This document shows positions 9,602 through 43,958 of a DNA stretch of 64,000 nt, piece by piece (within the stretch, counting starts at the first letter, position 1; each line of letters starts with the position of its first letter). The notes beneath the pieces were generated by a model. It was given only the letters and a program-made list of their open reading frames with translations, ran no database searches and was not told the origin of the DNA. The position numbers were made by a program, and so were the translations under genes. The stretch lies in IMG/VR virus record IMGVR_UViG_2513237251_000004, one strand, 5' to 3'. Source of the stretch: a virus. Its lineage: Duplodnaviria; Heunggongvirae; Uroviricota; Caudoviricetes.

Positions 9602-9772
9602 ACGAATTTTGGTGATTTATTAACTCTACGAAGTATGATTCTGATATATAAGGAAATTTATTTTTGAAAATGTGGCTGATGAAGGTTATGCGGCAGGGAT
9701 CATAACTGCATGGTTTAGCGAGTTACATCAATAAATACAATTGGTTATGTTTTTTAGGTGGGCGAACGTGAG

Positions 9773-9800
9773 GCAAAGAAAACCCGGCGCTGAGGCCGGG
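9773..9800 (-). terminator. Rho-independent terminator ending the cI-stk operon (tIMM-like)
   Basis: CCCGGCCTCAGCGCCGGG hairpin followed by TTTTCTTTG on minus strand, about 170 nt past the stk stop. Confidence 0.55.
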
Positions 9801-9967
9801 CTAGATTTTAAAGTATTTATCTTTTAGAGATGTAGATGTAAAACTTTTCGCCTTTGAAAATTTTTTGTCATCAGAAGGGCTTATGAACTCATCTTTTTTG
9901 TAGGGAACCGCTAATGCTGCATCACGTCTGCGAGGCAGCTTGCTTACTTCCTCGCGCTTTTTCATGA

Positions 9968-11014
9968 TCAGTTATCCTTTAATAACCTATACAGTTTTGT
10001 AGGGGTACATCCTGAGGATATTGTTAAGTTCGTAGCACGCCTTTTCCGCCCATCATCGTATAAACGAAAACCAGTAGTAGACGAATTTTCTGCGTCAAAA
10101 ACTATAGACAGTATAGCGTCCCCAGACTTTTTTTGCCATTCGCATGTGCCGTTAGTTGGTTTCGTCATCTGTAGACGCCAGTCAAGAACGCCATCACTTA
10201 TAGCTGAGAGATCGTTTAGTACATCTAGTACGGATTGATATCTTTCATTTGGATCTACATGAATGCATTTGTTCACTATTGTTATTAATTTTTTATGTAT
10301 ATGGGGAGGATACTCTTTTAATGGATAGCAGCCATTAATTATCGACTCTCTGAGTTGTTCAATCGTGCTAAATGCAGATCTTTCTCTTTCAAAATTATCA
10401 TGTCCAACACACATTCTATATATGGTTAATCCTGCCTGATATATGTCATATGTGAAATTATAATCATTTGTTGATAAAGAAAAATATTCCGGTGGCACAT
10501 GAAAATGATATCCAAACTCAGGCGCAGCTCTCGATTCCTCATTGACTAACTGAGATAATCCAAAGTCAGATAGCATGGCCTCATTTCTGTTTGATATCAT
10601 AATGTTATTAGGTTTTATATCAAAATGCATAAGACCTTTTGAGTGTATATGATAAAGTCCACTTAAAAATTGAATGGAATACCGTATTATCTCCCTGCTT
10701 GTAAGATTATTTTTTTTCATTAATTGGTTTAGCGAACCATTATGATAAAATGGCATGGCTATATAGATATTGCTCTCACATTGAGCAGCATACTGAACTT
10801 GCACAATATTTGGATGTGCATGTTTATAGAGAAGCCTTGCTTCATTAAAGTAGTCGTCGTGGTTAGTGTTTTCTTTTTTTTCTATTTCTTTAATCACCAA
10901 GTCATGAGCTAGGTGTCTGTCATGAGCCAGATATACTTTTGAAAAACAACCCTGTTCTTCTAGATCACTAATCCATTCGAATTCTACATCAGCTCTTTTG
11001 TATGGAGTTAGCAT
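9968..11014 (-). CDS. stk: Eukaryotic-like Ser/Thr protein kinase Stk (phage exclusion)
   Basis: 348 aa with Hanks kinase motifs (VIKEI lysine, HFDIKPNN catalytic loop, SDFG); same position as 933W stk between N and cI. Confidence 0.85.
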   Translation of the reverse strand: MLTPYKRADVEFEWISDLEEQGCFSKVYLAHDRHLAHDLVIKEIEKKENTNHDDYFNEARLLYKHAHPNIVQVQYAAQCESNIYIAMPFYHNGSLNQLMKKNNLTSREIIRYSIQFLSGLYHIHSKGLMHFDIKPNNIMISNRNEAMLSDFGLSQLVNEESRAAPEFGYHFHVPPEYFSLSTNDYNFTYDIYQAGLTIYRMCVGHDNFERERSAFSTIEQLRESIINGCYPLKEYPPHIHKKLITIVNKCIHVDPNERYQSVLDVLNDLSAISDGVLDWRLQMTKPTNGTCEWQKKSGDAILSIVFDAENSSTTGFRLYDDGRKRRATNLTISSGCTPTKLYRLLKDN

Positions 11015-11469
11015 CCCCTTACCTCCGCAGATAGTGCAGCCAAAACAGCTTCATTTGTTTCAGTTGTAAAACCAGAATTATCGATTCCATTTATATTGCG
11101 GTGTGACTTCAATATTTCTTTATACTCGATCTCTGTTAGGTTCAATGATGATTTCATGCCAGATTTTCTAATAGTGTAATATTTTCTTACATCACTGCTT
11201 GAAAATGCTTCTTGAATAACAGCTTCTATATAAAGGCGGTCAATGCTAAGATTATCAGAGTTTGATTCAGTAACGCGTATGGCAGCTAATTCAACATTAT
11301 ATAAATTAAGAATGTCGAGGATGTTATTTCTCACATACTTTAATTTTTCTGGTGTGTCTAAGGTCGAAGGTATTTTAATAACATCAACACATTTGAGTGC
11401 AGACTCATTAGTGCAATATACAACAAAAGATGTAACTTTGGGCGCCGCTCTAACACCTAGTATTCTCAT
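11008..11469 (-). CDS. Hypothetical 153-aa protein translationally coupled to stk
   Basis: Stop overlaps stk start by 7 nt; AT-rich; N-terminus MRILGV... loosely reminiscent of RNase-H-fold starts but without a catalytic Asp; function unknown. Confidence 0.5.
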   Translation of the reverse strand: MRILGVRAAPKVTSFVVYCTNESALKCVDVIKIPSTLDTPEKLKYVRNNILDILNLYNVELAAIRVTESNSDNLSIDRLYIEAVIQEAFSSSDVRKYYTIRKSGMKSSLNLTEIEYKEILKSHRNINGIDNSGFTTETNEAVLAALSAEVRGC

Positions 11470-11520
11470 TTTTTATATCCTATTTTAGAATCAGGCCGCA
11501 TCTCTGCGACCATCCATCAT

Positions 11521-11535
11521 CCAAACGTCTCTTCA
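11521..11535. repeat. 15-bp direct repeat copy 1 (CCAAACGTCTCTTCA) immediately 3' of orf113
   Basis: Exact 15-mer repeated at 11892-11906. Confidence 0.7.
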
Positions 11536-11536
11536 C

Positions 11537-11878
11537 TCATCCGAAGAAGCAGCAATCCGGGTTAGCACGCACAAGCTCAAGCGCATCAGTCAGCGAAAGT
11601 TCAGTACTGTACTGATGCCATTTCATATCCTTCCGCATCCAATAGATTTTCCATCTATCCAGAGAACGTATGTACTTGATTCTTGCTGATGGCAGGATGT
11701 TTGTTTCACCTGGATTGCCCTGCCACACGGGGCGCTGTTCGCCGATATCTATCGTTTGGTCATTGATGCTATAAACAATATCCAGTTCATTGCGGATATG
11801 TTCAGGCGGCCTTATGCTTTCAATGAATTGGTGAACTTCTTTTTTTACTGCTTGATATTCAAGGTCATTGAACGCCAT
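11537..11878 (-). CDS. Hypothetical 113-aa protein between cI and orf153
   Basis: ORF with AAGGAGGA RBS; bracketed by the 15-bp direct repeats. Confidence 0.5.
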   Translation of the reverse strand: MAFNDLEYQAVKKEVHQFIESIRPPEHIRNELDIVYSINDQTIDIGEQRPVWQGNPGETNILPSARIKYIRSLDRWKIYWMRKDMKWHQYSTELSLTDALELVRANPDCCFFG

Positions 11879-11891
11879 CTATCCTCCTTAC

Positions 11892-11906
11892 CCAAACGTC
11901 TCTTCA
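11892..11906. repeat. 15-bp direct repeat copy 2 (CCAAACGTCTCTTCA) between cI stop and orf113 RBS
   Basis: Exact match to 11521-11535. Confidence 0.7.
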
Positions 11907-11938
11907 GGCCACTGGTTACCAGCTATGTGACGATGAAG

Positions 11939-12646
11939 TCACGAACTTTTCAGCCACTCCCTTGCCTCGATGTCATCCAGATGGCGAGATTGCTTCAGAA
12001 TACCAGCTACATACTCCACCTTTGCTACTTGATGATAAGGCAACGTTATAGGCCTGTGATCCTGGTTAATGCTTGTAAATTGGTATTCTCCATCTCTGTC
12101 ATAGCCAAGAACCTTAATCATGTTGTGTCCTTCAACGGTTCTGACAAACACCTCATCACCCGGGAATACTTTGGTGTTAGGCTCAATGAGTACATATTCT
12201 CCTGATTTTATTCTGGGCCACATGCTGTCTCCTTTCACACGAAGACCAAAGGCATCTGGATCATCGCTATAAATTTTGAGCCACCCATCGCGCTCTTCGG
12301 TCATCTCGATGGCACCATCAACACCAAGAATTGCCTCACCAACCACGCGCACTAACCCTTTTTTTAATTTGCCAACAAATGAAAGAGTATCTTCATCATT
12401 CGCTCCATTTAACGAAGTGCCGTGCTGAAGCCAAACAACATCAACGTTTAGAAATTTCGCAAGCGCATTCATTTTTTCCTGACGCGGTAAAGACTCAGCA
12501 TTAAACCATTTGCTAACGCCTTTGGACGAAAGAGAAAGGGCACGGGCTATAGCCATTCCCCTACCATGTTCATCAAGACCAGCTTCTTTACAGGCTTGCG
12601 CTAGCCGCTGGGCGAATTCTTTGCGCACTTTTTCATTCTGAACCAT
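11939..12646 (-). CDS. cI: CI repressor (HTH plus LexA-like S24 autopeptidase)
   Basis: 235 aa; N-terminal HTH region, C-terminal ...GDSMWP... Ser-protease region; divergent from cro. Confidence 0.8.
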   Translation of the reverse strand: MVQNEKVRKEFAQRLAQACKEAGLDEHGRGMAIARALSLSSKGVSKWFNAESLPRQEKMNALAKFLNVDVVWLQHGTSLNGANDEDTLSFVGKLKKGLVRVVGEAILGVDGAIEMTEERDGWLKIYSDDPDAFGLRVKGDSMWPRIKSGEYVLIEPNTKVFPGDEVFVRTVEGHNMIKVLGYDRDGEYQFTSINQDHRPITLPYHQVAKVEYVAGILKQSRHLDDIEAREWLKSS

Positions 12647-12724
12647 GAGTACGATACTAAAGCACTTGCAAAAACTTTCAGTTCAACCATAATACGTACT
12701 GAAAGTACGAAAAAGGATATTCCT
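12647..12724. promoter_or_regulatory. OR/pRM/pR divergent control region
   Basis: 78-bp cI-cro intergenic region containing palindrome CGTACT-GAA-AGTACG (12695-12709) and related ACTTTCAGT element. Confidence 0.5.
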
Positions 12725-12952
12725 ATGCAAAATCTTGATGAGCCGATTAAAGGTGTCGGCATCCCTGAAGTTGCGAAGGCTTGTGGAGTTAGCGAAAGGG
12801 CTGTCTATAAGTGGCTCAAAAACGGCTTCCTCCCTAAGACTGAGTTTTTTGGGAAAACTAAATACGCATCAAAAATCGAAGAGATTTCTGGTGGCAAATA
12901 TCAAGCAAGCGAAATGCTTGAAATAAGCAAAAAGAACCTTCTGGCTGCATAA
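12725..12952 (+). CDS. cro: Cro repressor
   Basis: 75 aa, HTH GIPEVAKACGVSERAVYKWLKNG; divergent from cI. Confidence 0.8.
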   Translation: MQNLDEPIKGVGIPEVAKACGVSERAVYKWLKNGFLPKTEFFGKTKYASKIEEISGGKYQASEMLEISKKNLLAA

Positions 12953-13412: not shown

Positions 13413-13556
13413 ATGCGAAAAACGCAGGAAAATAAACGCGTTAATCACCGAAAAGATGTGCTACGTGACCAGTTTTATCAGGGGGTTAATCCAGCAATAG
13501 CTGTGCCACTGAGAGAAATACTTAACAGGTACAAAACTTCGGAGAAGTCAAAATGA
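13413..13556 (+). CDS. Small basic hypothetical protein (47 aa)
   Basis: Internal ATG with GAGG RBS; longer track ORF overlaps cII in another frame. Confidence 0.3.
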   Translation: MRKTQENKRVNHRKDVLRDQFYQGVNPAIAVPLREILNRYKTSEKSK

Positions 13557-14329
13557 GCATGAATCTTATGGCTAAGGCCATGAATATAAAGGTTGGCAAC
13601 CCACTGAGAAAACTGGTTCTGATTAAACTTGCCGATAACGCCAATGATAATGGCGAATGCTGGCCTTCATATCAACATGTCGCTGACCAGTGTGAGGTGA
13701 GCAGATCGACAGTAAAAAGTCACATTAGGGCACTGGAAGAGATGGGGCTTTTGAAAAGGGAATTCAGAAGAAAAGGAGAGCTTAACCAGTCAAACGTTTT
13801 TTATCTGACGCTGGATAATGCACAACAAATCCAACCAGAATCAGGTGGGGCAGGAGCTGCCCGGGGTGGGGCAGGAGCTGCCCTAGGGGGTGGGGCAGGA
13901 GCTGCCCCCAGAACCTATCACTCTTTTGAACCAGTCAATGAACCTAAAAACATTATGTTCGAACATGTCCGAACAGAGTGTGAAAAAACTCCTGACCGTC
14001 ACGAAGAAACCGACAAGGCATTCGAGGAAATATTCTGGTGTGCAGGCATGCGGAAAGCCGGGAAGAAAAACGCAGCTTCAGCATTCAGAACACAGTTCAG
14101 GGAATGGCGTAAAACTACCAGGGGGACGGCAAGCGAGTTTGCCACGATGCTGGCAGAAGACATTGCGTGCAGGCTCGGTAAGCAGTTCGGGTTCGACAGG
14201 TTGTTACCATCGAGCTACCTGAACGGTCAACGCTGGAACGACGAGAAGCCAGAAACTATTCAACCACAATCCAAACCATCATCCGCAATCACCGTATCGA
14301 AAACTGGCTACGTGTTTTTCGACAGGTGA
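13553..14329 (+). CDS. Replication initiator, O-like (HTH N-domain with iterons inside the gene)
   Basis: N-terminal wHTH-like region; iteron array in mid-gene encodes GGAGAARGGAGAALGGGAGAA. Confidence 0.65.
   Translation: MSMNLMAKAMNIKVGNPLRKLVLIKLADNANDNGECWPSYQHVADQCEVSRSTVKSHIRALEEMGLLKREFRRKGELNQSNVFYLTLDNAQQIQPESGGAGAARGGAGAALGGGAGAAPRTYHSFEPVNEPKNIMFEHVRTECEKTPDRHEETDKAFEEIFWCAGMRKAGKKNAASAFRTQFREWRKTTRGTASEFATMLAEDIACRLGKQFGFDRLLPSSYLNGQRWNDEKPETIQPQSKPSSAITVSKTGYVFFDR
13844..13906. repeat. Origin iterons: three copies of GTGGGGCAGGAGCTGCC followed by an AT-rich stretch
   Basis: Copies begin at about 13845, 13866 and 13890. Confidence 0.6.
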
Positions 14330-14439: not shown

Positions 14440-17346
14440 ATGACTCCAAGTGAACTGAGCGACCTGCTTTGGGCGCAGGTTGACAGGGTGGCTCCGCACC
14501 TGTTGCCAAACGGCAAGAAAGAGGGGCATGAGTGGGTTGCCGGTAACGTCAACGGTGACAAGGGAAACAGCCTTAAGGTCAACATTAGCGGCAAGAAAAA
14601 ATGGGCTGATTTCGCTGAGGGAGACGGCGGTGACATGCTTGATTTGTGGATGGCATGTCGTGGAATTAACCTGCATCAGGCTATGCAGGAAGCGAAAGCA
14701 TTTCTCGGTATCAAGGATGACGATCACCATTTCGATGCCAAACGTGAGAAAAAATTCTCCAGACCTGACCGCAAGAAAATCGCCCGCTACGTTACCAGAA
14801 CAGAATCCCATCTTGAGTACCTGCAATCGCGTGGCATATCGCCAGAAATCGTAAAGCGCTACGAGGTTGTCAGCGGCAAGGTGTGGAATGGAGAGCGGGA
14901 ACTGGATGCTCTGGTGCTTCCGTACAAACGCGATGGTGAGTTGTTGCAGGTCAAGCGAATCAGCACTGAGCGCCCGGACGGGAAGAAAGTCATTATGGCA
15001 GAAGGTGATTGCGAACCTTGTCTGTTCGGATGGCAGGCTCTGGACGCTGGCGTGAGGGCGGTTGTACTTTGCGAAGGCGAAATTGATTGTATGAGCTATG
15101 CGCAATACGGCATCTCGGCGTTATCCGTGCCGTTTGGTGGCGGGAAAGGCGCTAAGCAGCAGTGGATTGAGTTTGAGTATCACAACCTCGACAGGTTTGA
15201 GGAAATATTCATCTCGATGGACGTTGATGATGTTGGTCGTGAAGCCGCAAGGGAAATCGCAAGCCGACTCGGTGAACATCGTTGCCGTCTTGTTACTCTG
15301 CCGTACAAAGACATCAACGAATGCCTGATGAACGGTGTTACCGAGGATGAAATCTGGCAGTACATCGGCACGGCATCCTATTTCGATCCTGAAGAACTCT
15401 ACAGTGCGCGAGAGTTTTACCAGGACACTATCAACGCTTTCTACGGCAAGAAGCAGTATCTGTTTAATCCACCGTGGGAATCTCTGGCAGATAAATTCCA
15501 GTTCCGTGAGGCCGAGTTGACGCTGGTCAATGGTGTGAACGGTCACGGAAAGGCATGCCCACTGAATGAGCCTATTCTTTTAGCTGATGGGACATGGACT
15601 ACTCACGGGGATGTAAAAATTGGCGATCAGGTGGCGTCAGTAGACGGCAATCCGTCAACTGTCACTGGGATATTCCCGCAGGGTGTTAGAGATGTTTACC
15701 GAGTCACATTTGAAGATGGTCGTTATGTTGATTGCGCAGGCGATCACCTATGGGAGGTCACTAGTCGTGGATTCACGAAAGGCGAGAAACGCCGCGTGAT
15801 TGACACCTTCGAGCTGAAGCGGTTGAGTGAAACGAAGAGGCACAAAAATGGCGTTAGGATTCCTGAAATAACTGGTGACTTTGGCGACCACTCAGAGCCA
15901 TTAGCATGGGTTATCGGCTCCCTTCTCGGGGATGGTAGTCTTAGCAATGGGAGCGTGAAGTTTTCAAACGTCGAGCCATACATGATCGAGCGTATGAAGG
16001 CTGAACTGCCTGATTACAACTTCTCTGGAGATGGTAAGGACTGGCTGATATCAACGGCGCGTGGTCAGGCAAATCCACTCATGGAGACCCTGCGAGGTTA
16101 TGGACTAATGGGGTGCACAGCAAAAAACAAATTCATCCCTCGTGTGTTTTTTTCCGCAAATAAATCAACGCGTATAGGCATGCTGTGTGGTCTGCTTGAA
16201 ACGGATGGGTATGTCGAGAAGGATGGAACGCTTGTTTTTTCCTCAGCAAGTGAAGAACTGCGCAATGGGGTTGTTCAACTGGTTAACTCACTCGGCGGGT
16301 CATGCCGGACGCGAGTTAAAACTGGCGTGACATACACATACAAGGACGATAAGCGGCATGGGATGGATTCATACGAGGCAAGAATCAGACTGACAAGAGA
16401 AATCAGGGAGGCCATCCGTTCACCACGACTCAATGGCAGATTAACTGCGCATCGATTCGAGGGCTGTGGGGTATTCGTCAGGAATGTTGAAAAAATCGGC
16501 AATGCAGAATGCTTGTGTATTATGGTCGATCACCCTCGCCACCTGTATGTAACCAGGGGATATGTGGCGACGCATAACACCGAGGTTGTCGGGCATATGG
16601 CACTTGAGGCAATGCGTCAGGGTGTGAAGACGTGCATCGCGTCACTTGAGCTGAAGCCTGGTATTCTCCTTAAGCGCCTTACCCGTCAGGCGACGTGCTG
16701 CAAGATGCCGCCAGTGCTGGAAATTGACTCTGCATTTAAATTTTATGACGAAAGACTTTGGGTGTTTGGCCTGACCGGAACGGCGAAAGCCGACAGGCTG
16801 ATCGAAATATTCGACTACGCTCGCCGCCGATACGGTATCCAGTTATTCATCATCGACAGCCTGATGAAATGTGGCATAGGCGACGATGACTATAACGGGC
16901 AGAAGGCGTTTGTTGACTCGATTTGCGACTTCAAAAACAAAACAAACTCCCACGTCATTCTCGTTACTCACTCGCGAAAAGGAGACAGCGAAGAAAAACC
17001 AACCGGGAAAATGGACGTAAAAGGCTCTGGAGCGATAACAGACCTGACAGACAACCTTTTCATCATCTGGCGTAACAAGGCTCGCGAGAGAGCGTTACAG
17101 AGAGTTCAGAGTGGTGAAAAGATGTCAGAGAAGGACGAACAGCTACTGGCATCTCCGGCATCTGTTTTGATGCTTGAAAAACAACGTAACGGCGAAGGTT
17201 GGGAAGGTGGTGTCCCGTTGTTCCTTGACGAGCAATCGCACCAGTTCCTGCAACTTGAATCAGGATCGCCATATAGCTACATCGCCAATATGCCGAAATC
17301 GGAATATGACGAGGCGTGGCGACAGGAAAACGTGACGGAGTATTAA
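14440..17346 (+). CDS. Primase-helicase (TOPRIM plus DnaB/SF4-type helicase) interrupted by an intein
   Basis: TOPRIM-like VVLCEGEIDCMSY ... ISMDVDDVG; helicase motifs LFIIDSL, VTHSRK, LEKQRNG; Walker A GVNGHGK split by the intein. Confidence 0.75.
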   Translation: MTPSELSDLLWAQVDRVAPHLLPNGKKEGHEWVAGNVNGDKGNSLKVNISGKKKWADFAEGDGGDMLDLWMACRGINLHQAMQEAKAFLGIKDDDHHFDAKREKKFSRPDRKKIARYVTRTESHLEYLQSRGISPEIVKRYEVVSGKVWNGERELDALVLPYKRDGELLQVKRISTERPDGKKVIMAEGDCEPCLFGWQALDAGVRAVVLCEGEIDCMSYAQYGISALSVPFGGGKGAKQQWIEFEYHNLDRFEEIFISMDVDDVGREAAREIASRLGEHRCRLVTLPYKDINECLMNGVTEDEIWQYIGTASYFDPEELYSAREFYQDTINAFYGKKQYLFNPPWESLADKFQFREAELTLVNGVNGHGKACPLNEPILLADGTWTTHGDVKIGDQVASVDGNPSTVTGIFPQGVRDVYRVTFEDGRYVDCAGDHLWEVTSRGFTKGEKRRVIDTFELKRLSETKRHKNGVRIPEITGDFGDHSEPLAWVIGSLLGDGSLSNGSVKFSNVEPYMIERMKAELPDYNFSGDGKDWLISTARGQANPLMETLRGYGLMGCTAKNKFIPRVFFSANKSTRIGMLCGLLETDGYVEKDGTLVFSSASEELRNGVVQLVNSLGGSCRTRVKTGVTYTYKDDKRHGMDSYEARIRLTREIREAIRSPRLNGRLTAHRFEGCGVFVRNVEKIGNAECLCIMVDHPRHLYVTRGYVATHNTEVVGHMALEAMRQGVKTCIASLELKPGILLKRLTRQATCCKMPPVLEIDSAFKFYDERLWVFGLTGTAKADRLIEIFDYARRRYGIQLFIIDSLMKCGIGDDDYNGQKAFVDSICDFKNKTNSHVILVTHSRKGDSEEKPTGKMDVKGSGAITDLTDNLFIIWRNKARERALQRVQSGEKMSEKDEQLLASPASVLMLEKQRNGEGWEGGVPLFLDEQSHQFLQLESGSPYSYIANMPKSEYDEAWRQENVTEY
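15556..16578 (+). other. LAGLIDADG-type intein (about 341 aa) within the helicase P-loop; N-terminal boundary uncertain by one codon
   Basis: Starts (A)CPLNEPILLADG..., two LAGLIDADG blocks (VIGSLLGDGSL, MLCGLLETDGYV), ends ...LYVTRGYVATHN followed by Thr. Confidence 0.6.
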
Positions 17347-42254: not shown

Positions 42255-43958
42255 GTGATGCCGATCGCGATTTTAGCGAATTCCATCATAAATCCCCTGA
42301 TTTTTAAGCCTGAAGCAGTCAAAGGAATTTCTATGCCCTATATCGATATCACCACGATGCGTGGGATGATGCCGCGCGTTGTGACATCCATGCTGCCCGA
42401 GCATTCCGCTGTACTGGCGGAGGACTGCCATTTCCGGTTTGGTGTTATTACACCAGAACGTCAGATATCCGGGGTTGAGAAAACATTCACAATTAAGCCA
42501 AAAACAATTTTTCATTACCGTGACGATTTCTGGTTTGCATGGCCGGATGTGGTGGATGTGATCCGCAGTCCGATCGCTCAGGACCCCCACGGGCGTATTT
42601 ACTACACTGACGGGCGTTTTCCTAAAGTGACGGATGCGACTATTGCCACAAAAGGGGACGGGAATCACCCGACATCATCGTATCGTCTGGGGATCCCCGC
42701 GCCGACGACAGCTCCTGTCTGTACTGTTCAGCAGGGCGGTGATGTTTCTGACGATAACCCGAATGATGATGAAACCCGGTTTTATACGGAAACCTTTGTC
42801 TCAGATTATGGTGAAGAAGGTCCGCCAGGTCCGGCGTCTCTGGAGGTAACACTCCGTACTCCGGGAACTGCGGTACAACTGACGCTGGCTCCGGTGCCAT
42901 TGCAGAATGCCAGTATTAAACGTCGCCGGATTTATCGCTCTGCATCAGGTGGAGGGGAGGCGGATTTTTTACTTGTGGCTGAACTGGATGCATCCGTGCT
43001 CAGTTACACGGACAAAATACCGGCGAAAAACCTTGGGCCTTCCCTGGCGACATGGGATTACCTGCCGCCGCCAGAGAATATGACAGGCCTTTGCCTGATG
43101 GCTAACGGTATTGCCGCCGGGTTTGCCGGTAATGAAGTGATGTTTTCGGAAGCGTATCTGCCGTATGCATGGCCGGAAGTGAATCGTCACACGACGGCAG
43201 AAGATATTGTAGCTATCTGTCCGCTGGGAACGTCACTGGTGGTGGCGACAAAGGGGGAGCCTTATTTGTTCAGTGGGGTATCACCGTCCACAATTTCTGG
43301 TTCCAAAATCCCTTCAATGCAGGCGTGTCTGAGCAGGCGGAGTATGGTTGCGATGGAGGGTTTTGTGCTGTATGCAGGAACAAATGGCCTGGTGTCTGTT
43401 GATGCAAACGGTAATGTCGCGCTGGCGACGGAACAGATTGTTTCACCGGAACAGTGGCAGAGTCAGTTTAATCCGGCCTCCATTGTGGCTTATCCCTGGC
43501 GTGGTGAATACATTGCCTGTTACACGAAACCGGATGGTAAGCAGGATGTGTTTGTATTCAGTCCGGTGAACATGGATATCCGTTATCTCAGTACACCGTT
43601 TGACTGCGCATGGGTTGATCTCGCGAAAGATATGATGCGCGTGGTGACAGGAGACAAAATGTCAGTGCTTGCCGGGGGGGCTCTGCCCTCCACGATAAGG
43701 TGGCATTCAAAAATTTTTTCATTACCTGAAAGAACCTCTTTTTCCTGTATCAGGGTGAAATCTCCGGCGCCTGAGCGGGTGGGGATCACCATTATGGCTG
43801 ATGATGTTCCTGTGATTCATTTTGCGCCGGGTACGTTTAAGGGAAGTGTGGTGAGACTTCCGGCAGCAACCGGGCAAAACTGGCAGGTGATGGTATCCGG
43901 ATTCGGGCAGGTGGAACGAATAACCCTGAGTACATCAATGTCGGAGATGCCGGTATGA
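42255..43958 (+). CDS. Tail/virion structural protein
   Basis: 567-aa ORF in the tail module; start may be internal. Confidence 0.45.
   Translation: MMPIAILANSIINPLIFKPEAVKGISMPYIDITTMRGMMPRVVTSMLPEHSAVLAEDCHFRFGVITPERQISGVEKTFTIKPKTIFHYRDDFWFAWPDVVDVIRSPIAQDPHGRIYYTDGRFPKVTDATIATKGDGNHPTSSYRLGIPAPTTAPVCTVQQGGDVSDDNPNDDETRFYTETFVSDYGEEGPPGPASLEVTLRTPGTAVQLTLAPVPLQNASIKRRRIYRSASGGGEADFLLVAELDASVLSYTDKIPAKNLGPSLATWDYLPPPENMTGLCLMANGIAAGFAGNEVMFSEAYLPYAWPEVNRHTTAEDIVAICPLGTSLVVATKGEPYLFSGVSPSTISGSKIPSMQACLSRRSMVAMEGFVLYAGTNGLVSVDANGNVALATEQIVSPEQWQSQFNPASIVAYPWRGEYIACYTKPDGKQDVFVFSPVNMDIRYLSTPFDCAWVDLAKDMMRVVTGDKMSVLAGGALPSTIRWHSKIFSLPERTSFSCIRVKSPAPERVGITIMADDVPVIHFAPGTFKGSVVRLPAATGQNWQVMVSGFGQVERITLSTSMSEMPV

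Follow-up and report, generated by a model that had tools for sequence, protein, structure and literature searches.

Which of the genes that follow a prophage repressor belong to the abortive-infection system attributed to the protein kinase Stk? The question is raised by a 64,000-nucleotide stretch of the tailed-phage record IMGVR_UViG_2513237251_000004 (hereafter the window), in which cI, orf113, orf153 and stk lie head-to-tail on the minus strand, an order already given in an earlier note on this DNA and in agreement with the open reading frame (ORF) coordinates. Window positions 9700-12700 are 100% identical to the immunity region of phage 933W (AF125520/NC_000924), and likewise to phi24B, Stx2 phage I and dozens of further Shiga toxin (Stx) phages. 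Since 2011, Stk has served as the textbook case of a prophage abortive-infection kinase made of a single protein, and PMC3681748 and PMC3564112, which both cite Friedman 2011 and Tyler 2004, describe it as an abortive-infection kinase with little activity in uninfected lysogens that is activated by infection with phage HK97 and aborts it. The earlier note had proposed that orf113 and orf153 form a multi-component exclusion system together with the kinase. For orf153, a co-occurrence that holds in both directions supports such a partnership; for orf113, the distribution speaks against it. We arrive at two independent cassettes, one consisting of orf113 and the other of a three-gene module, orf153-stk-orf54, that acts jointly in defence, and we give this reading a probability of about 0.7, a figure that excludes the specific roles of the partner proteins.

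Linkage of stk with two partner genes

A profile of orf153 homologues, scanned over species-representative genomes (one per species), found 39 loci, and a Stk profile, scanned over IMG/VR, found 80 loci, 77 of which were evaluable. All 39 genome loci carry a Stk homologue of about 345 amino acids directly downstream of orf153, its C-terminal domain included. Of these kinases, one appears to be broken by a frameshift and another runs off the end of its contig. The loci span about five phyla overall, with members in the Enterobacterales, Vibrionales, Alteromonadales, Acinetobacter, Xanthomonadales, Pasteurellales, Beta- and Alphaproteobacteria, Bacteroidota and Clostridia, and in an acidobacterial metagenome-assembled genome. 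Seen from the kinase, orf153 stands immediately upstream of stk in 77 of the 77 evaluable viral loci, the other three of the 80 being truncated or cut by a contig end. Full-length Stk occurs in 41 records of the phage database, namely 39 Stx-type phages and the Bacillus phages SPbetaL6 and SPbetaL7, and orf153 occurs in 41 records of matching composition; 25 further hits cover the kinase domain only, and none of those record types has orf153. The junction between the two genes is conserved as well: across the 39 loci, the kinase gene begins anywhere from 8 nt before to 10 nt after the orf153 stop, with ATGnnTAA, ATGA and TAATG as recurrent forms. In the window, the 7-nt overlap described in the earlier note was found at 11008-11014, which is common to both genes and reads ATGCTAA on the coding strand. 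From the conservation of such overlaps we infer translational coupling of the module genes. Furthermore, the pairwise identities of orf153 and Stk correlate with a Pearson coefficient of 0.90 over 72 non-redundant loci, with a mean of 43% for both proteins, and the ratio of nonsynonymous to synonymous substitution rates (dN/dS) of orf153 is 0.05-0.11, indicating strong purifying selection. The co-occurrence of orf153 with stk homologues, which the earlier note had put forward as a check of its proposal, is thus borne out in bacterial and viral genomes alike.

The partner list of the earlier note was right with regard to orf153 and incomplete at the other end of the kinase gene, as a gene of 54 codons between stk and the terminator had been overlooked. 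This gene, orf54 (933W gp21, phrog_4063), starts 2 nt past the stk stop and ends at the terminator. A basic ORF of 50-71 amino acids lies a few nucleotides from the kinase stop in 37 of the 39 genome loci and in 80 of the 80 viral loci (117/119), and independently called trios have lengths of 152, 344 and 61 amino acids in Pseudomonas, 155, 349 and 53 in Elizabethkingia, and 167, 350 and 60 in Bacillus phage SPbetaL7. All members of the orf54 family are basic (median isoelectric point 10.1) and begin with MK-; they share a near-invariant arginine in a hydrophobic-(S/T/P/K)-R motif at about residues 12-20 and a C-terminal aromatic-hydrophobic motif. Homology to the orf54 of the window is recognisable in enterobacterial versions down to 56-57% Stk identity. 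orf54 evolves faster than orf153 and stk, and it does so under purifying selection: its dN/dS is ~0.2-0.4 in the majority of the pairs that could be measured, with a maximum of 0.61. We conclude that orf153, stk and orf54 are one conserved module, a mobile unit with its own terminator.

Stk itself is a Hanks-type kinase, as it matches the Pfam Pkinase model with an expectation value (E) of 2.2e-46 and 158.8 bits against a cut-off of 31.7, and K42, E58, H130/D132/K134/N137, D150-F-G152, P175-E176, D190 and R258 are invariant among 20 diverse members. The catalytic loop reads HFDIKPNN, and DxKPxN is a pattern of the Ser/Thr type; tyrosine phosphorylation has been reported for Stk. In the activation segment, Tyr169 is near-invariant. 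Residues ~262-348 form a conserved extra domain with the invariant tryptophans W279 and W293. The PADLOC models of PD-T4-6 match Stk at residues ~20-276 only (best E 1e-37, residues 20-273) and leave this C-terminal domain unmatched, and the MADS mad6 models match only the kinase domain. Because the PD-T4-6 models also match housekeeping PASTA kinases, the label is generic. If PD-T4-6 is understood as full-length similarity together with a single-gene locus, Stk falls outside of it, as it is always flanked by two co-conserved genes.

The upstream partner belongs to a family of 442 representatives at 50% identity (exhaustive profile search), and the 150 representatives listed are all stand-alone proteins of ~150-175 amino acids, none of them fused. 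The AlphaFold2 model of orf153, built from a 32-sequence alignment, is confident (predicted local distance difference score 91.6, predicted template-modelling score 0.86), and a fold comparison with this model points to the RNase-H-like fold of RuvC. The sequence likeness is faint: identity to RuvC is 12-17%, the Pfam RuvC model (PF02075) scores 14.2 bits (E 0.042), under its cut-off of 22.2, hhalign gave E 0.038 with a reported probability of 1.4%, and the NCBIfam RuvC match is weak (E 0.098). A profile search of the PDB returned nothing meaningful for orf153, and PADLOC gave no hit, so that the fold comparison is the one informative link to a known family. In weak alignments with a matching order of strands and helices, R7 stands at the catalytic D7 of RuvC and R65 at E66, and of the acidic tetrad (D7, E66, D138/H and D141 in E. 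coli) only E140, matching D141, is kept. Among 121 representatives, G5, R47, R78, E82 and E87 are invariant, R7 is found in 120, R or K at position 65 in all 121 and E68 in 119, and position 140 is acidic throughout (E or D). Because arginine or lysine align where RuvC has catalytic acids, orf153 is most unlikely to be a RuvC nuclease of the canonical two-metal type, to judge from the aligned sequences, and it seems to have retained a strongly constrained charged cleft. A working phage resolvase was considered and rejected for orf153 in view of the replaced catalytic acids and the invariable linkage to the kinase. The description of orf153 and orf113 as uncharacterised in the earlier note holds only in part, as databases name the former 'RuvC-like resolvase' and assign the latter to DUF3024 and PDC-S43.

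orf113 and the 15-bp junction behind cI

Pfam DUF3024 (PF11225) covers residues 4-113 of the 113 residues of orf113 (E 1.2e-30, 106.5 bits against a cut-off of 24.9), and PADLOC PDC-S43 covers residues 1-113 (E 4.4e-41). A PDB search returned a chance-level match to AvrPto only (E 0.07); in the literature, we found nothing on DUF3024, and PDC-S43 appears there solely as a listed prediction. A DUF3024 gene accompanies the Stk module in one of the 39 genome loci, a Proteus prophage, and is absent from the other 38. Likewise, orf113 is lacking in a set of viral contigs where orf153-stk-orf54, with 97% identity in Stk, directly follows another S24-type repressor. In the phage database, most of the orf113 region is present in 134 records, versus 41 for stk. 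Where orf113 does occur, its downstream neighbour varies: of 70 viral loci, 28 continue with orf153, 18 with a phage-1717 gp19-like gene, 7 with a gene for a ParA-like ATPase (for example in Salmonella ST160), 1 with an NYN-domain gene and 14 with some other gene, and 2 stop at a contig end, which makes 40 of 70 loci with a downstream gene other than orf153. As orf113 is absent from 38 of 39 distant loci and from modules that are 97% identical in Stk, it cannot be counted as a component of the kinase system, and in this point the proposal of the earlier note has to be given up. Absence or lack of linkage in most stk-carrying prophages, which that note had named as the outcome that would speak against its proposal, is what we found for orf113 and not for orf153. 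We conclude that orf113 is an independent, swappable single-gene cassette and, as PDC-S43, a defence candidate.

The borders of this cassette are marked by an exact 15-mer direct repeat, CCAAACGTCTCTTCA, whose two copies bracket orf113 as the earlier note had described. An exact direct repeat of at least 15 nt within 1 kb is present in 2% of 200 Markov-1 shuffles of the whole window, and the remaining such repeats in the window are ori iterons and structural-gene repeats; the shuffles and the recurrence of the 15-mer at cassette junctions make a chance repeat unlikely. In phage BP-4795, a repressor that shares its C-terminal half with 933W cI is followed by a single 15-mer and then immediately by unrelated sequence, so that homology to the window stops at the 15-mer copy where a HigB/HigA cassette begins. 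This three-gene cassette behind the repressor (AJ556162, 9.1-10.1 kb) encodes a HigB-like protein, an Xre/HigA-like protein and a 134-residue protein, all annotated merely as hypothetical ORF20-22; the first two match the validated PD-Lambda-2 components A and B, and the third matches component C of PD-T4-9. The Stx2a phage Stx2_EH0505 has the order cI, a variant of the 15-mer, orf113, the 15-mer and an NYN-domain gene, and phage 1717 has the 15-mer and then a diverged orf113 behind another repressor. On the side of the Stk module, homology between the window and contig L071, which has a different repressor and no orf113, starts exactly at the distal 15-mer copy, and in contig L082, also lacking orf113, a lone copy that deviates at 1 position precedes orf153 by 54 nt. 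At the other end, the terminator hairpin is conserved in L071, L082, L086 and L090, and their homology to the window stops just past it. Two copies of the 15-mer are found in 60 of the 70 viral orf113 loci, irrespective of the downstream gene.

Since the 15-mer stands at the breaks of homology between phages, each cassette starts at a 15-mer. The insertion of orf113 as a cassette by short homology, suggested in the earlier note, therefore gains support, as the 15-mer bounds orf113 and marks the breaks between phages, and the pattern fits short-homology recombination between them. An integron-type cassette was also considered for orf113 and rejected, there being no inverted-repeat partner near the 15-mer and no integrase gene adjoining in the operon. 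The slot behind cI is a cassette-exchange hotspot for defence cargo, because BP-4795 has its PD-Lambda-2A/B-like and PD-T4-9C-like genes at the same junction. The 15-bp junction offers a defined starting point for studying the exchange of lysogen-expressed defence cargo behind the repressor genes of lambdoid and Stx phages.

Operon layout and genomic surroundings

The features of the locus are collected in Table 1; 933W positions are converted to window positions by subtracting 136. On the minus strand, the 933W annotation lists pM, cI, ST933Wp24 (DUF3024), ST933Wp23 ('RuvC-like Holliday junction resolvase'), stk, ST933Wp21 and tM, where ST933Wp24 is orf113, ST933Wp23 is orf153, and ST933Wp21, a 54-residue hypothetical protein, is orf54. 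This gene order, together with the annotated pM and tM of the identical 933W region, supports the assignment to the repressor operon, in the slot occupied by rexAB in lambda, that had been made for the locus. The terminator previously reported downstream of stk was found as an 8-bp GC-rich stem followed by a U-run, and it coincides with tM of 933W; from cI to 9802, the minus strand showed nothing resembling a terminator. Cotranscription of cI and stk is stated in PMC3564112, which cites Tyler 2004 for it. The AT-richness noted for orf153 and stk was also seen, their GC content being 32-37% versus 43-46% across orf113 and cI, a gap of ~10 points between orf113 and orf153-stk.

Table 1. Features of the repressor operon and its two cassettes in window coordinates
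Feature	Position	Strand	Basis
pM/pRM maintenance promoter, predicted driver of the operon	12654..12681	-	transferred from NC_000924 annotation 12790-12817
cI repressor, HTH_3 + Peptidase_S24	11939..12646	-	ORF list, Pfam, 933W annotation
15-mer junction, cI-proximal copy, coding-strand TGAAGAGACGTTTGG	11892..11906		exact repeat
orf113, DUF3024, PADLOC candidate PDC-S43, single-gene cassette with its own strong ribosome-binding site	11537..11878	-	
15-mer junction, distal copy, 5' boundary of the Stk module	11521..11535		exact repeat
Leader hairpin of 7 bp upstream of orf153	11494..11511	-	prediction
orf153, stand-alone RuvC-fold protein (predicted), obligate upstream partner of Stk	11008..11469	-	
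stk, Hanks-type protein kinase with conserved C-terminal alpha+beta domain of ~85 amino acids	9968..11014	-	
orf54, basic protein of 54 residues, conserved last gene of the Stk module	9801..9965	-	
tM, intrinsic terminator that closes the Stk module at its 3' end	9781..9802	-	hairpin prediction, 933W annotation

The leader hairpin has the stem GGUCGCA/UGCGGCC in the window (z -2.75) and GGCUGCA/UGCAGCC in contig L071 (2503-2522; z -3.65), so that the hairpin is kept, with other stem bases, in two modules that are 97% related. Through RNA processing, stability or attenuation, this hairpin could set expression of the kinase module relative to cI. In the record of Stx2 phage I (AP004402), a 'putative maintenance promoter' and three 'putative operators' are annotated within the orf153 coding sequence (43025-43105, equivalent to window 11143-11223); because the real pM and OR lie upstream of cI, these are probably an annotation artefact.

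Of 5,426 complete E. coli genomes, 225 (~4%), largely Shiga-toxin strains, have the Stk module, and 227 have orf113. The module also occurs, among other bacteria, in Pseudomonas, Acinetobacter and Elizabethkingia, where it lies in defence islands. Neighbours enriched at the 39 genome loci are helix-turn-helix/S24 repressors, integrases, N-type antiterminators, type I and IIG restriction-modification systems, OLD/Gabija-like ATPases and AbiEii-like proteins; one individual locus lies beside an LlaJI restriction system and ArdA, and another beside Abi_2, a PRTase-type gene and an integrase. The same three-gene module occurs in the SPbeta-like Bacillus phages SPbetaL7 (OQ921347, 53.0-54.8 kb) and SPbetaL6; in SPbetaL7, all three genes are annotated as hypothetical, and the RuvC-fold protein of 167 amino acids keeps R7, R65 and E68. 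In six loci, one of them from E. coli UTAK-2, stk is split by frameshifts or by an IS3-family insertion element. Because several copies are interrupted in this way, the sequences suggest that the kinase is occasionally inactivated in natural isolates.

Elsewhere in the window, the replication module, with a 258-residue O-like protein and a 968-codon gene, is unlike the lambda-type O/P of 933W, despite the identical immunity region. The 968-residue product (14440-17346, plus strand) resembles a primase/DnaB-like helicase with an apparent intein, whose motifs include ...GKACPLNEP..., LLGDGSL, LLETDGYV and ...VATHNT..., among them LAGLIDADG-type motifs. Within the O-like gene (13553-14329), tandem repeats of 21-24 nt at 13844-13907 on the plus strand (GGTGGGGCAGGAGCT...) encode a GGAGAA-rich stretch and are probably ori iterons, by analogy with those annotated at the equivalent site in 933W O. 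Near the end of the window, at 63266-63338 (plus strand), there is an exact direct repeat of 42 nt with 31-nt spacing, that is, with overlapping tandem copies.

Competing explanations and known systems

In the two-cassette reading that we favour, both cassettes would be expressed in the lysogen and stacked downstream of the prophage repressor. One would be orf113 alone, bracketed by the 15-mer, at which lambdoid phages would have recombined different cargo; the other would be self-contained, running from the 15-mer through the leader hairpin, orf153, stk and orf54 to the terminator. The products of orf153, stk and orf54 together would constitute the Stk abortive-infection system. In the lysogen, translational coupling would keep the three proteins at a fixed ratio, and Stk would be held essentially inactive until a sensitive phage such as HK97 infects; infection would then turn Stk on, cell proteins would be phosphorylated and the infection would be aborted. 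orf153 may act as a non-cleaving regulatory or sensor subunit that binds branched DNA or a phage recombination protein and couples this to the kinase, and orf54, a fast-evolving basic peptide, may serve as kinase-bound regulator or as (pseudo)substrate. For orf153, we prefer the role of a sensor or activator, tentatively and at somewhat short of even odds; that of an inhibitor resembling an antitoxin is possible and not favoured, and other roles share the rest. The fully specified tripartite version, with a RuvC-fold sensor of branched DNA or of an annealing protein that activates Stk and with orf54 as pseudosubstrate brake, we regard as distinctly unlikely when taken as a whole.

A toxin-antitoxin-like arrangement, in which Stk would be a kinase toxin restrained through binding by orf153 and/or orf54 until infection lifts the brake, is also on the unlikely side, with several points in its favour. 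A small gene that runs into the start of the kinase gene by 1, 4 or 8 nt is a constant upstream neighbour across phyla, Stk is reportedly near-inactive in uninfected lysogens, BP-4795 holds a toxin-antitoxin-derived defence system in the same slot, the short arginine-centred linear motif of orf54 could serve as a pseudosubstrate, and overlapping small partner genes are compatible with the architecture of HipBA and HipBST. However, toxicity of stk alone is an assumption, the module is without the DNA-binding autoregulator typical of type II systems, and the strictly conserved charged residues in the former RuvC active-site cleft suggest ligand binding rather than masking. Reducing the system to Stk alone, as a single gene of the PD-T4-6 type with orf153 and orf54 as linked passengers, orf153 being for example a working Holliday-junction resolvase, would agree with the databases, which hold Stk as a one-gene system, and with RefSeq and PHROGs, which name orf153 a resolvase. 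This explanation is nevertheless improbable, because passengers would not be expected to show perfect two-way co-occurrence over about five phyla with conserved coupling, correlated divergence and, in the case of orf153, strong purifying selection. In addition, arginine or lysine at both RuvC catalytic positions and the sub-threshold Pfam score argue against a canonical resolvase, and many of the loci are chromosomal defence islands and not phages in need of one. The single exclusion system of orf113, orf153 and Stk linked to cI, as the earlier note had it, is barely credible by now: it is true that orf113 stands directly upstream in all 39 Stx-type phage records with stk and that Proteus-type relatives have a DUF3024 gene before orf153, but orf113 is missing from nearly all genome loci and from the closely related module behind another repressor, occurs in many more phage records than stk, is followed by other genes at most of its viral loci and differs clearly in GC content from orf153-stk.

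Several points weigh against the two-cassette reading with a jointly acting module, and they concern mostly the partners. A part of orf153 and orf54 in exclusion, and their binding to Stk, would be predictions from the linkage described above. Plasmid-borne stk may have been reported to suffice for the exclusion of HK97, which would favour a kinase acting alone; if the cloned gene alone excludes this phage, the partners modulate rather than enable the system. The correspondence of R7 and R65 to D7 and E66 of RuvC comes from weak alignments and the order of secondary-structure elements and not from a superposition of coordinates, and the conserved acids E68, E82, E87 and E140 may permit an unconventional active site in orf153. 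Across phyla, the homology of orf54 is one of position and short motif, without statistically significant sequence similarity. Finally, work by Friedman in 2011 reportedly identified gp41 of HK97 as the trigger of Stk. The gene order in NC_002167 (24175-24780) is Gp40, erf, a two-start 'recombinase' gene and kil, which is Gp43, and solely from this order gp41 appears to be an Erf-like single-strand-annealing protein; a literature search for HK97 gp41 and Erf found no paper that confirms the numbering. If gp41 is Erf, this would link a recombination protein to the resolvase-fold partner of the kinase.

The papers found by full-text search describe Stk as a single protein and mention neither a RuvC-fold or small partner nor a wide distribution of the module; full-text searches for RuvC-like proteins with a kinase, where the single joint hit was irrelevant, and for PD-T4-6 with RuvC found no account of a three-gene module. 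If the kinase never occurs without both partners, its activation by a phage protein becomes directly testable, and the one-gene 'PD-T4-6' calls made by defence-annotation tools would describe the locus incompletely. In the fully specified tripartite version, regarded above as distinctly unlikely, the module would tie a resolvase-derived, structure-specific DNA sensor to eukaryotic-like phosphorylation, conserved from Enterobacteria to Bacteroidota, Clostridia and Bacillus phages.

The closest known system is Stk of 933W (Friedman et al. 2011, Mol Microbiol 82:567; cotranscription with cI, Tyler et al. 2004), which is the same gene (100% identity), expressed by the prophage from the same repressor operon, and confers HK97-dependent abortive infection. 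The locus resembles lambda RexAB in its slot between cI and the leftward operon and in the abortive infection of heterologous phages by repressor-cotranscribed genes, but RexAB is reported as a sensor and a membrane protein and not as a kinase. Neither the best 25 of 35 PADLOC families for Stk nor the hits listed for the partner proteins include a Rex model, and Pfam, PHROGs and NCBIfam results contained no Rex family, so that no homologue of RexA or RexB was detected in these searches. HipBA and HipBST likewise combine a kinase effector with small overlapping partners, and HipBST is tripartite; HipA and HipT, however, belong to a different kinase family, and the Stk module has no helix-turn-helix partner. 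A Hanks-type kinase domain is likewise used for abortive defence by PD-T4-6 (Vassallo 2022) and by the staphylococcal Stk2 (Depardieu 2016), but these are single genes, whereas the 933W Stk family has its own C-terminal domain and two fixed partners. PMC11341870 reports KKP of Pf prophages as a multi-gene Ser/Thr-kinase-based anti-phage defence; its composition of two kinases and a phosphatase, without a RuvC-fold or small basic protein, sets it apart. Compared with RuvC resolvases and with nuclease-dead RuvC domains such as that of Cas12k, orf153 differs in its identity of only 12-17%, in R7 and R/K65 and in the constant pairing with a kinase. Defences of the PD-Lambda-2/CmdTAC type and the 'moron' cassettes of lambdoid phages are related through the PD-Lambda-2A/B-like genes of BP-4795, a different cargo at the same junction; this likeness bears on orf113 and the 15-mer and not on the kinase mechanism. 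In conclusion, earlier work had already established the kinase, where it lies and the exclusion that it confers, and fold and domain labels existed for orf153 and orf113. As far as full-text searches of the literature show, the obligate three-gene architecture and its spread across phyla appear to be new, and so do the partner's loss of the catalytic acids of RuvC, the standing of orf113 as a separate cassette and the 15-bp junction that defines a cargo hotspot.

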